From Escherichia phage TM1, in the sequence record MT808983.1: a stretch of 39,817 bases of DNA. The stretch is one strand, 5' to 3'. The position numbers and the translations under genes were made by a program. Shown piece after piece: positions 9,386-39,817 of the stretch (positions within the stretch are counted from its first letter, which is position 1; each line of letters starts with the position of its first letter). The notes under the pieces were generated by a model that had not been told where the DNA came from, ran no database searches, and worked only from the letters and a program-made list of their open reading frames with translations.

Positions 9386-9831
9386 TGAAACTTAAAGAGA
9401 AACTGGAGGTTTACTCTGAGGTTTCTCCTACTGGGTGCTGGGAGTGGCAACTCTCCCGGTTCCCTGCTGGATATGGTCGAATATCAATAGGACGTCAGAA
9501 ACAGGACTACGCTCACCGAGTTTCATACAGGGAGTACAAAGGTCCGATACCTGATGGATTGGTTGTTAGACATAAATGTGATAACCCCTGCTGCTGTAAC
9601 CCTGAGCACCTTGAATTAGGTACGCAGAAGGACAACATGAGGGACTGCATGGAGAGAGGACGAAAGTCCAACCCTCCCGTATTCAAAGGAGAAGCTAATC
9701 ATAAGACTAAGCTGACCAAGGAAAACGTAGAGTTCATCTTAGAGTCGATGCTGCCAGCTACAGAACTAGCCAAGATGTTTGGAGTCACACCAGCAGCTAT
9801 AAACTGGAGGAGACAACATGGCTGGACGTAG
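9385..9831 (+). CDS. HNH homing endonuclease (148 aa)
   Basis: H-N-H core HRVSYREY...VVRHKCDNPCCCNPEHLELGTQKDN; ATG overlaps the SSB stop (TAATG). Confidence 0.85.
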   Translation: MKLKEKLEVYSEVSPTGCWEWQLSRFPAGYGRISIGRQKQDYAHRVSYREYKGPIPDGLVVRHKCDNPCCCNPEHLELGTQKDNMRDCMERGRKSNPPVFKGEANHKTKLTKENVEFILESMLPATELAKMFGVTPAAINWRRQHGWT

Positions 9832-11476: not shown

Positions 11477-11555
11477 GTCTCCATAGCTCAAACGGTAGAG
11501 CGGCGGGTCATGATGGCCTATTGCGATTAGGGTTCGAATCCCCGTGGAGACGCCA
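11477..11555 (+). tRNA. tRNA-like element (possible degenerate tRNA, candidate anticodon CAT; anticodon arm ambiguous)
   Basis: Perfect 7-bp acceptor stem (gtctcca/tggagac), T8, D-arm gctc-aaacggta-gagc with GG, T-loop GGTTCGAATCC, discriminator G and encoded CCA; but 26 nt between the D- and T-arms with imperfect anticodon stem pairing. Confidence 0.4.
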
Positions 11556-15688: not shown

Positions 15689-16003
15689 ATGGGAGGTGTA
15701 GCAACCTTACGCTTCCATAAGATGCCTACTGGATGTATCGTCTGTGTATCTCACAAGAGGAACCAAGATGGATACTTTCGGTACACGGTAGGATCTGCCC
15801 GTAAGCCAGGACGCAAGGCGTTTATGTTTCACCGATGGGTGTGGGAACAGAAGCGCGGGCCTATACCAGATGGCTATGAGATAGACCATTTGTGTTTGAA
15901 TCGTGGGTGCTGTAACGTAGAGCATCTGCAATGTATTCCAAAGCGTGAGCACGTCATCAAGACGAACCGTGAGCGCAAACTTGTCAAGAAGGAGTGTCAC
16001 TAA
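15689..16003 (+). CDS. HNH homing endonuclease (104 aa)
   Basis: FHRWVWEQ...IDHLCLNRGCCNVEHLQCIPKREH (H-N-H motif); SD AAGGAGG; occupies the T7 gene 5.3 position. Confidence 0.85.
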   Translation: MGGVATLRFHKMPTGCIVCVSHKRNQDGYFRYTVGSARKPGRKAFMFHRWVWEQKRGPIPDGYEIDHLCLNRGCCNVEHLQCIPKREHVIKTNRERKLVKKECH

Positions 16004-35834: not shown

Positions 35835-36029
35835 ATGATTGAGTTAGACTTCAAGAATGAGGTCCTTAAAGCCTCTCCTATCGTCGGGACCGCTGCGGCT
35901 GATGGTGCCAGTCGGTTCTTCTTCGGACTCACACTGAACGAATGGTTCTACGTTGCAGCTATCGCGTACACCGTTGTCCAGATTGGTGTGCTGGTCTACA
36001 AAACGATTAAAGGAGGCGGTAAAACATGA
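35835..36029 (+). CDS. gp17.5: Class II holin (T7 gp17.5 homolog, 64 aa)
   Basis: FFGLTLNEWFYVAAIAYTVVQIG matches T7 holin (FFGLSLNEWFYVAAIAYTVVQIG). Confidence 0.9.
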   Translation: MIELDFKNEVLKASPIVGTAAADGASRFFFGLTLNEWFYVAAIAYTVVQIGVLVYKTIKGGGKT

Positions 36030-36351: not shown

Positions 36352-36753
36352 ATGAAAGATTCATACATAAGTGGCGGTTACTGGAAGGTTACTCGTAATG
36401 GTAAGGTTCATGGAGTTCATAGATTACTATGGGAGGAAGCCTACGGTCCTATCCCAGATGGTTACGTCATAGACCACATTGATAGGAATCCTATGAATAA
36501 CGAACTGTCAAACCTTAGGTGCATACCTAAAGGCGCAAACAAGGCTAACACGGTATCCTCTAGGGAACTGCCTAAAGGCGTATACTCTAGGTTTGCTAAA
36601 CGTCAAGGTGTAACTGTGTACTATGGTGACATTAGGATGGGAGGTAAGAAAGAAACTCATGCGCCTACTGAGAATCTGAAGGAAGTCGTGGAATGGGCTA
36701 AGTCAACTCATAGCAGAATGCTAAAGGAGACATATGGTATTTCAAATGTTTAA
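36352..36753 (+). CDS. HNH homing endonuclease (133 aa) inserted between gene 18 and the spanin genes
   Basis: VHRLLWEEAYGPIPDGYVIDHIDRNPMNNELSNLRCIPKGAN (H-N-H/N motif); SD AAGGAGG; locally AT-rich. Confidence 0.85.
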   Translation: MKDSYISGGYWKVTRNGKVHGVHRLLWEEAYGPIPDGYVIDHIDRNPMNNELSNLRCIPKGANKANTVSSRELPKGVYSRFAKRQGVTVYYGDIRMGGKKETHAPTENLKEVVEWAKSTHSRMLKETYGISNV

Positions 36754-37186
36754 GAGAGCGGCTCCGTGGTTACTTGCAGCAGTGATGTTTGCTGGTGGCT
36801 ACCACACCGCTAACAGTAAGTGAGAGGCTAAGGTAAATGCAGAATACACCTCGAATCTTAAGGCATCGGAAGATACAAGGCTTGCTGTCCAAGCTGAAGT
36901 CAACAAAGTGTCCAAACGTTTTCAGGACGAAATGTCCTCGCTGGAAGGCAGCACTGATAGGATTATTGCTGACCTTCAGTCTGACAATAAGCGGTTGCGC
37001 ATCCGAGTCAAACCAACGAGTGGAACCACGCAAAGTGACGGTCGATGCGTCATTGATGATTTCGCCGAACTTGACGAACGAGATGCTAAACGTCTTATCG
37101 CCATCGGACTGAAAGGGGACAAGTGGATTAAGGCCCTTCAGGACACTGTGAGAGCCTTGCAGCAAGATAAGGAGGTGAAGCATTGA
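36746..37186 (+). pseudogene. gp18.5: Rz-like i-spanin (T7 gp18.5 homolog) interrupted by an in-frame TGA at 36821-36823
   Basis: N-terminal 25 codons (MFKRAAPWLLAAVMFAGGYHTANSK, TM anchor) then TGA, then the same frame continues EAKVNAEY...SSLEGSTDRIIADLQSDNKRLRIRVK...DERDAKRLIA...KWIKALQDTV, collinear with T7 gp18.5 on both sides of the stop. Confidence 0.6.
36837..37112 (+). CDS. gp18.7: Rz1-like o-spanin lipoprotein (T7 gp18.7 homolog), embedded in the +1 frame of the i-spanin gene
   Basis: PRWKAALIGLLLTFSLTISGCASE (signal peptide with lipobox ISGC) ...MISPNLTNEMLNV parallels T7 gp18.7 (PRWKGALIGLFLICVATISGCASE...MVEPNLTTEMLNV). Confidence 0.8.
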   Translation: MQNTPRILRHRKIQGLLSKLKSTKCPNVFRTKCPRWKAALIGLLLTFSLTISGCASESNQRVEPRKVTVDASLMISPNLTNEMLNVLSPSD

Positions 37187-38946
37187 GTAAAGACTTAGTG
37201 GCGCGTCAGGCGCTAATGACTGCACGTATGAAGGCAGACTTCGTGTTCTTCCTGTTCGTCCTGTGGAAAGCTCTGTCACTCCCAGTCCCGACTCGCTGTC
37301 AGATTGACATGGCGAAGAAACTATCGGCTGGGGACAACAGGCGTTTCATCCTACAGGCGTTCCGTGGTATCGGGAAGTCCTTCATTACGTGTGCCTTCGT
37401 GGTCTGGAAACTATGGAACAACCCAGACTTGAAGTTCATGATTGTGTCGGCCTCAAAGGAACGAGCCGATGCTAACTCCATCTTCATCAAGCGAATCATC
37501 GACCTCATGCCTCAGCTTCAGGAACTCAAACCTAAGCAGGGCCAACGAGATGCGGTTATCAGCTTCGACGTTGGACCAGCCAAACCAGACCACTCACCTT
37601 CGGTTAAGTCCGTTGGTATCACTGGTCAGTTGACTGGTAGTCGTGCTGACATACTGATTGCCGATGACGTGGAGGTTCCGAACAACTCAGCGACTCAGGC
37701 TGCTCGTGACCGTCTGTCAGAGCTTGTGAAAGAGTTCGACGCTATCCTGAAGCCTGGAGGTACAATCATCTATCTGGGTACTCCTCAGAACGAGATGACC
37801 CTGTATCGTGAGCTGGAAGGTCGTGGGTACACAACTACTATCTGGCCAGCTCGTTATCCACGCGATAAGAAGGACTGGCAGTCCTACGGCGACCGTCTGG
37901 CTCCTATGCTTCAAGCAGAGCTGGAAGAGGACCCTGAGTCCTTCTACTGGCGTCCTACTGATGAAGTACGCTTCGATGATACTGACCTGAAGGAACGTGA
38001 GCTGTCCTATGGTAAAGCTGGCTTCGCTCTCCAGTTCATGCTTAACCCGAACCTGAGTGATGCCGAGAAGTACCCTCTGAAGCTACGTGACCTTATCGTA
38101 GCAGACTTGGACCCAGCGTCAAGCCCAATGGTCTACCAATGGTTGCCGAACCCTCAGAACAAGCGTGAGGACGTTCCTAACGTTGGACTCATGGGTGACT
38201 CATACCACACGTATCAGACTGTAGGTTCTGCCTTCAGTTCGTACACCCAGAAGATTCTGGTCATTGACCCTAGTGGTCGTGGTAAGGATGAAACTGGTTA
38301 TGCGGTACTGTATCAGCTCAACGGCTACATCTTCGCTATGGAAGTTGGCGGTATGCGGGGTGGTTATGAAGACTCTACGCTTGAAGCCTTGGCTAAGATT
38401 GGTCGTAAGTGGAAGGTCAACGAATACGTCATTGAGGGTAACTTCGGTGATGGTATGTACCTTGAGCTATTCAAGCCTGTAGCGGCCCGTATCCATCCTG
38501 CGGCTGTAACTGAAGTGAAGAGTAAGGGTCAGAAAGAACTCCGCATCTGTGACGTTCTGGAGCCTATCATGGGGTCTCACCGACTTATCGTCAACGCTGC
38601 TGCTATCGTCCAAGACTACCAGACAGCCTCTGACAAGGATGGTGTTCGTAACCCTATCTACTCTCTCTTCTATCAGATGACCCGTATCTCTCGTGAACGT
38701 GGAGCCTTGGCACACGATGACCGACTTGATGCGCTGGCTATCGGTGTACAGTTCTTCGTTGAGTCTATGGCTAAGGATGCCAACAAAGGAGAACGTGAAG
38801 TCACTGAGGAGTGGCTGGAGGAACAGATGGAGAACCCACGGAAAGGCTTCGAGTCCATCCACACTGAGTTCTGGGACAATGGGGTCCGGGTAACTCACGA
38901 TACGGACGACGAGATGGGTCTAGGGTCCTACGTTACGTTCCACTAG
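37183..38946 (+). CDS. gp19: Terminase large subunit (T7 gp19 homolog, 587 aa)
   Basis: [29 protein letters not shown]...[20 protein letters not shown]...[17 protein letters not shown]...[11 protein letters not shown], collinear with T7 gp19; apparent TTG start 7 nt after AGGAGG, overlapping the spanin stop. Confidence 0.96.
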
Positions 38947-39638: not shown

Positions 39639-39817
39639 TCACAGTTCAAGAACCTCAAGTCTCCCCATAGGCCCTCTTTTAGTCCAGACCAAAGGCCCTA
39701 CCCCAGTCTATCATAAGGTGGGACCGATGGTCAAGACTTCAGGTCAACGATAGGTTGAGGCTATGGCTGGAGGTCGGGACGATAGGTAGGGACTATGGGT
39801 CTGCCTCTAAGTCCCTA
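39639..39817. repeat. Right direct terminal repeat, identical to 1-179
   Basis: Sequence tcacagttcaag...ctaagtcccta matches the first 179 nt of the window. Confidence 0.85.

Follow-up and report, generated by a model that had tools for sequence, protein, structure and literature searches.

A premature opal codon interrupts the i-spanin gene in the genome sequence of Escherichia phage TM1

In the genome sequence of Escherichia phage TM1, the gene for the i-spanin (gp18.5/Rz-like) is interrupted at codon 30 by a TGA, which stands where all the relatives examined have a codon for tryptophan. It is probable that this TGA is a real nonsense mutation, private to TM1 and of recent origin, in a conditionally dispensable gene, and that the resulting allele is possibly leaky. 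The window analyzed here is the whole stretch of 39,817 nucleotides of record MT808983.1, and the features of the region are listed in Table 1. TM1 is a Kayfunavirus, a genus that comprises the K1F-like members of the T7 group (Studiervirinae). Its spanin region is 94-98% identical to that of many Kayfunavirus genomes, and the closest records over the right 25 kb (EcoDS1, ST31, pO91, and others) are about 94-95% identical.

Table 1. Features of the lysis region of phage TM1 (positions in the window; all on the + strand)
Feature	Position	Strand	Details
Holin gene (gp17.5)	35835..36029	+	Intact, 100% identical to EcoDS1 holin
HNH homing-endonuclease gene	36352..36753	+	133 aa; PF13392, 65 bits; identical to QNH91757.1 'homing endonuclease'
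i-spanin Shine-Dalgarno AAGGAG	36724..36729	+	Within the 3'-terminal part of the inserted HNH gene
5' part of i-spanin gene (gp18.5/Rz-like)	36734..36823	+	29-codon ORF MVFQMFKRAAPWLLAAVMFAGGYHTANSK plus premature TGA; from the ORF list
Second private substitution	36816	+	A>G (AAT>AGT, Asn>Ser), located 7 nt 5' of G36823A
Premature opal codon TGA	36821..36823	+	G36823A, TGG (Trp30) to stop; +4 base is G
o-spanin Shine-Dalgarno	36823..36827	+	AGAGG here, GGAGG in relatives
Rest of i-spanin frame, predicted periplasmic coiled-coil domain	36824..37186	+	120 codons plus natural TGA
o-spanin gene (gp18.7/Rz1-like predicted lipoprotein)	36837..37112	+	Embedded in the +1 frame, intact

Read from 36746 to 37186 on the + strand, the i-spanin frame translates as MFKRAAPWLLAAVMFAGGYHTANSK, a stop, and then EAKVNAEY...KEVKH, followed by the natural TGA at 37184-37186, 120 sense codons after the premature one. 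That an in-frame TGA splits this gene had been claimed in an earlier note on the same DNA, and the translation confirms it. The note also described the frame as collinear with T7 gp18.5 beyond the stop, which agrees with the protein alignments, as these run across it both to gp18.5 of EcoDS1 (91% identity, query residues 1-147) and to the i-spanin of Pipis (94% identity, query residues 1-149). The part of the gene downstream of the TGA is untranslated unless the stop is misread.

The start codon assumed in that note (ATG 36746) has to be revised. A second ATG, at 36734, is found 12 nt upstream in the same frame, and the sequence AAGGAG lies 4 nt 5' of it, with an anti-Shine-Dalgarno pairing energy of -8.7 kcal/mol; ATG 36746 would stand 16 nt from this same element. 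Moreover, ATG 36734 (or its equivalent) is the annotated start in the records of YZ1, BUCT788, and TM1. The i-spanin is likely to start at ATG 36734 rather than at 36746, and in that case the truncated product (hereafter, the stump) would most likely be a peptide of 29 aa (MVFQMFKR...NSK) instead of one of 25 aa. This peptide is identical to QNH91758.1, a protein annotated as 'endopeptidase [Escherichia phage TM1]'.

The sole hydrophobic stretch of the i-spanin (approximately residues 10-24) is located inside the stump, while the remainder of the protein is hydrophilic. According to this distribution, the stump is predicted to consist only of a cytoplasmic tip and the single transmembrane segment, and the claim that the periplasmic domain would be made without its membrane anchor unless the stop is read through proves correct. 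It had also been stated that no in-frame ATG with a Shine-Dalgarno sequence immediately follows the stop. In fact, no usable in-frame restart was found after the TGA, since the first two candidates, GTG 36908 and ATG 36932, show pairing energies of only -0.5 and -4.0 kcal/mol, respectively, and products initiated at either of them would in any case be devoid of the membrane anchor.

Comparison with other phages reveals which codon has been lost. The codon at 36821-36823 is TGG in 20 out of 20 relatives, which include PDP351P3, YZ1, BUCT788, Pipis, Peacock, SH3, EcoDS1, eleven relatives from IMG/VR, and an ENA metagenome contig, and none of them has a gene boundary at the position of the stop. 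These data answer the two questions that the earlier note had addressed to close relatives, i.e., whether the TGA replaces TGG or another codon, and whether a gene simply ends at this point. At the protein level, a database search with the i-spanin retrieved 263 homologues (E<=1e-3), nearly all of them with a length of 144-153 aa, and many with a precomputed PF03245 domain. In an alignment of 29 of these 263 proteins, spanning identities from 94% to 48%, a Trp occupies the column of the stop in all 28 full-length homologues, even at 48% identity and including T7/T3-type sequences. Judged from these alignments, the lesion consists of one transition, G>A at 36823, which hits a conserved Trp codon just past the predicted membrane anchor.

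A protein of 82 aa (P0080) was considered as a second natural truncation of this gene, and was rejected because it results from a gene call past a run of Ns in a contig of 1.5x coverage that still carries TGG. The Ns lie inside the i-spanin gene at about positions 1400-1500 of the ENA contig ERZ22336865 NODE_2618 (L020), and the 'short spanin' called there is artefactual.

The locus shows most of the features that define a two-component spanin of the T7 type. The predicted i-spanin combines one N-terminal transmembrane segment with a periplasmic helical domain, is collinear with the 28 full-length homologues, and exhibits 91-94% identity to annotated Kayfunavirus i-spanins. When scored directly against PF03245, the frame reaches 23.2-23.5 bits, below the cut-off of 25.4, so that it is the protein search, and not Pfam, that supports its homology. 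The o-spanin gene is wholly embedded in the +1 frame and encodes 91 aa with no stops, which are 97.8% identical to the Pipis o-spanin and match PF17531 (O_Spanin_T7) with 90 bits. This protein contains the motif TISGC, which in phage Peacock is a lipobox according to LipoP, and is accordingly predicted to be a lipoprotein with a lipobox Cys. What the locus lacks is an uninterrupted i-spanin frame reaching the o-spanin, due to the TGA at codon 30. It can be described, from its sequence, as a T7-type embedded two-component spanin by descent, which as written encodes a disrupted i-spanin.

The o-spanin had been reported as intact in the earlier note. This holds for its coding sequence, but not for its expression signal, as base 36823 is also the first (5') G of the GGAGG that serves as the o-spanin Shine-Dalgarno sequence. 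A ribosome-binding site has been annotated at the equivalent position in Pipis (683-687 of L004) by the Center for Phage Technology. The mutation removes one pair, and the computed anti-Shine-Dalgarno pairing energy changes from -10.2 kcal/mol in a relative to -7.2 kcal/mol in TM1. In addition, the stop lies 13 nt upstream of the o-spanin start (ATG 36837), where ribosomes ending at the TGA could in principle reinitiate. Translation of the o-spanin may consequently be affected by the change in its Shine-Dalgarno sequence, and its output could go down, go up, or stay level.

The similarity to the T7 pair gp18.5/gp18.7 extends to the arrangement of the genes, which follow the holin gene (17.5) and gene 18 and precede the large terminase gene, as well as to the N-terminal transmembrane domain, the periplasmic helical domain, and the lipoprotein gene in the +1 frame, as far as these can be predicted for TM1. 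TM1 differs from T7 in that its i-spanin is broken at codon 30 and its o-spanin Shine-Dalgarno sequence is one base weaker, and also in that the terminal part of the inserted HNH gene now stands in place of the native Shine-Dalgarno sequence and the first i-spanin codons.

On the evidence of public data, the TGA allele appears to be private to TM1. A 71-nt megablast query carrying the TM1 allele was compared with 50,697 phage records, and the best match (97.2%) mismatched at both private bases (36816 and 36823); the exact allele pattern was also absent from IMG/VR and from the JGI metagenome collection. In a set of about 15 billion proteins, the 29-aa stump stands as a singleton cluster, and its only exact-protein match is the TM1 record. 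A literature search on phage TM1 found no paper.

The fact that no second occurrence has been found in phage records, IMG/VR, or metagenome contigs counts against a real mutation. It could instead be that the phage really carries TGG, and that the deposited A at 36823 stems from a wrong base call or from a minority variant taken into the consensus. Such an artefact would require just one wrong base, it would fit an allele unique among the collections searched at a residue that is otherwise always Trp, and the other private change only 7 nt away could hint at a locally poor sequence. In the stretch 36754-37900, seven bases out of 1,147 nt are private to TM1 in comparison with 18 relatives (36816, 36823, 36919, 37542, 37653, 37833, and 37884). 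This density fits ordinary divergence, which argues against a local error, and about 0.26 pairs of private bases within 7 nt are estimated to occur by chance, so that the closeness of 36816 to 36823 is not significant and says little about the quality of the sequence. One of the remaining private bases, the G>T change at 36919, is synonymous in the i-spanin (CGG>CGT); in the o-spanin, it replaces Gly28 by Val within the N-terminal extension that precedes the signal-peptide core.

The integrity of the rest of the genome also bears on this question. All annotated proteins of EcoDS1 and Pipis were compared with the TM1 genome by tblastn, and each of the core genes (RNA polymerase, primase/helicase, DNA polymerase, portal, capsid, and tail genes) was recovered as one HSP without stops, as were those for the internal virion proteins, the holin, and both terminase subunits. 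Relative to EcoDS1 and Pipis, a premature stop or broken frame is seen in the i-spanin gene alone, a result that does not correspond to a generally error-prone assembly. Stop flags raised in 0.38 and ocr were discarded as disruptions, because they are natural length variants that are matched cleanly by the other relative. The genome ends in an exact direct terminal repeat of 179 bp (1-179 and 39639-39817), indicating a complete linear genome in which the two copies match over their whole length. The terminal repeat of EcoDS1 has 178 bp.

Furthermore, the change from TGG to TGA is a clean substitution (a transition) and not an indel in the GGG run, unlike the homopolymer insertion/deletion errors, and the 29-aa ORF is also found in the public TM1 record. 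As no other gene of the genome is disrupted, a real mutation is favoured over a base-call error. The artefact is a possibility to be kept in mind, although a clearly less probable one, and two of the three options raised in the earlier note, a nonsense mutation and a sequencing error, are therefore still standing in this order of preference.

The third of those options, programmed readthrough, is not supported. At a site of this kind, the stop is expected to be conserved in relatives and to be accompanied by a favourable context or a stimulatory structure. Here, the relatives have TGG and the full-length homologues have Trp, as described above, and the context is UGA-G, which falls outside the contexts described as leaky in E. 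coli, UGA-C and UGA-A (PMC5289835). Regarding structure, a search of Rfam over 36600-37300 yielded no family even at E<=1, and no SECIS; the 101-nt fold around the stop has a z value of +0.49 against shuffled sequences, i.e., no stable structure; and no slippery heptamer was found near the stop.

Nor is it credible, except at the very margin, that TM1 or its host reads this TGA as sense, either through a code in which TGA means Trp, as selenocysteine, or by means of an opal suppressor encoded by the phage or the host. The codon replaced is indeed Trp, which an organism using code 4 would write with TGA. Under that code, however, TGA would be unused as a terminator and would appear in frame in many genes, while in TM1 it ends 11 of the 53 genes, including those of the holin, the o-spanin, and the i-spanin itself, and a TGA=Trp code is thereby excluded. 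E. coli and other enterobacteria, the hosts of the relatives, use the standard code. Selenocysteine insertion would call for a bacterial SECIS hairpin just 3' of the UGA, where neither an Rfam match nor a stable structure exists. Finally, no suppressor tRNA was found in the genome, whose sole tRNA-like element has the anticodon CAT.

A different proposal is that the opal codon has been selected as a leaky attenuator. In this model, readthrough would lower the i-spanin dosage to a few percent and/or termination-reinitiation would feed ribosomes to the o-spanin ATG, offsetting its weaker Shine-Dalgarno sequence and retuning the i/o-spanin ratio or lysis. Several data could be accommodated by it: in E. 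coli, no stop is leakier than UGA, whose misreading would bring in the native Trp (PMC10570021, PMC5289835), the o-spanin ATG is the first start after the stop that opens a real frame, and the mutation also changes the o-spanin Shine-Dalgarno sequence, so that the expression of both genes would shift together. If true, the attenuator would retune spanin stoichiometry or delay rupture of the outer membrane in the host. Conservation, however, is the hallmark of recoding sites, and none of the 20 relatives or of the full-length homologues has the stop; G, and not C or A, occupies the +4 position, and neither a stimulatory structure nor a slippery sequence accompanies it. We consequently regard a programmed or adaptive stop as very improbable, both as a general mechanism and in the particular form of a selected attenuator.

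If, as we prefer, the TGA is a genuine nonsense mutation, translation from ATG 36734 would stop after 29 residues, leaving only the inner-membrane anchor, and no periplasmic coiled-coil domain would be made to contact the o-spanin. Without the periplasmic domain, the spanin complex would be unable to bridge and fuse the inner and outer membranes. By analogy with the nonsense alleles of lambda Rz, the truncated i-spanin should be non-functional. In lambda Rz, 82 such alleles, distributed over 34 positions along the whole periplasmic domain, are lysis-defective, and only the loss of the last residue is tolerated (PMC5295617). Holin and endolysin would still act in TM1, and the weakened cells would break anyway in shaken or low-cation culture. 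In fact, shaker flasks have been shown to mask the spanin defect, as the fragile spherical cells break mechanically (PMC6139136). TM1 would survive because spanins are only conditionally required.

That the phage probably tolerates this knock-out is also suggested by lesions in T7. A 2-bp frameshift at H38 of gene 18.5 appeared in one laboratory-adapted population (PMC8923235), and in genome-reduced T7 that is still viable, gp18.5 and gp18.7 count among the deleted or disrupted genes (PMC9825161). On the other hand, the allele may be a leaky one and not a null. In E. coli K-12, UGA is read through at about 2% at 37 C and 4% at 25 C, as Trp-tRNA competes with RF2 (PMC10570021). With the UGA decoded as a near-cognate codon by Trp-tRNA, the ancestral residue would be restored, giving a few percent of wild-type protein, and it is this identity between the misread product and the ancestral protein that makes leakiness plausible. 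The overlap of the mutated base with the o-spanin Shine-Dalgarno sequence and the restoration of the ancestral residue by tRNA-Trp were both missed when the three options were drawn up.

Three known systems help to place the TM1 lesion. The nonsense alleles of lambda Rz (e.g., Rz Q100am; Cahill et al. 2017, PMC5295617) share with it a stop that removes periplasmic-domain sequence while the embedded o-spanin coding sequence stays intact, and by analogy, infected cells would be expected to become spherical and fail to lyse if the outer membrane is stabilised. However, those alleles were selected in the laboratory and tested for phenotype, whereas the TM1 allele is a spontaneous opal codon in the deposited genome of a virulent T7-like phage. 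The lesions in 18.5 of laboratory T7 lines, whether spontaneous or engineered (PMC8923235; the genome-reduced T7 CiPGr, PMC9825161) are likewise early losses of function in the same gene of a viable phage, but frameshifts and deletions are beyond rescue by misreading, while misreading of the TM1 opal codon in place of Trp would regenerate the wild-type protein.

The third system is the readthrough of the Q-beta coat gene into A1, in which tRNA-Trp of E. coli likewise reads an in-frame UGA with a frequency of a few percent. In Q-beta the stop is conserved and the extended product (A1) is essential. The TM1 stop, in contrast, is private to one genome and interrupts a conserved gene with a single product.

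The TM1 lesion represents a further instance of a well-known kind of lesion and matters little beyond this genome. Nevertheless, it has some practical implications. Regarding annotation, the 29-aa 'endopeptidase' of TM1 should be labelled as a disrupted i-spanin, and the o-spanin should be annotated. In therapy or biocontrol, a TM1 stock may release its progeny poorly when the outer membrane is stabilised by divalent cations and there is no shear. Lastly, the combination of a lost Trp codon with a UGA stop, whose misreading would regenerate the wild-type protein, would make TM1 usable to ask how little i-spanin suffices for lysis.

The HNH gene upstream of the i-spanin is an insertion between gene 18 and the i-spanin gene, as deduced from comparison with Pipis and with the ENA contig L020. 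Its 3' end overlaps the i-spanin start, providing the new Shine-Dalgarno sequence and changing the first codons from MLEFLKR to MVFQMFKR. The insertion is common to YZ1, PDP351P3, and BUCT788, all of which have TGG, and it therefore did not cause the stop. The private substitutions at 36816 and 36823 lie 63-70 nt past the end of the HNH gene, and a link between them and break repair during homing would be pure speculation. Two more HNH-type ORFs were detected by tblastn, one at approximately 9397-9831 (+), between genes 2.5 and 3, with 40% identity to a Pipis HNH protein, and the other at approximately 15695-16003 (+), similar to T3 gene 5.3 and with 89% identity to a Pipis HNH protein, which raises the number of HNH genes in the genome to three.

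T7-group phages are not known for carrying tRNAs. The tRNA-like element mentioned above is located at 11477-11555 (+), just upstream of the primase/helicase gene; ARAGORN calls it as tRNA-Met (CAT), and it scores 36.5 bits against Rfam RF00005, with a gathering score of 29. ARAGORN did not call any tRNA in EcoDS1 or Pipis. Conservation of the 181-nt stretch that contains the element amounts to 93-98% across 33 Kayfunavirus records, and in three Salmonella phage records this site has the annotation 'tRNA-OTHER'. From its sequence features, it can be considered a candidate tRNA or structured RNA site.
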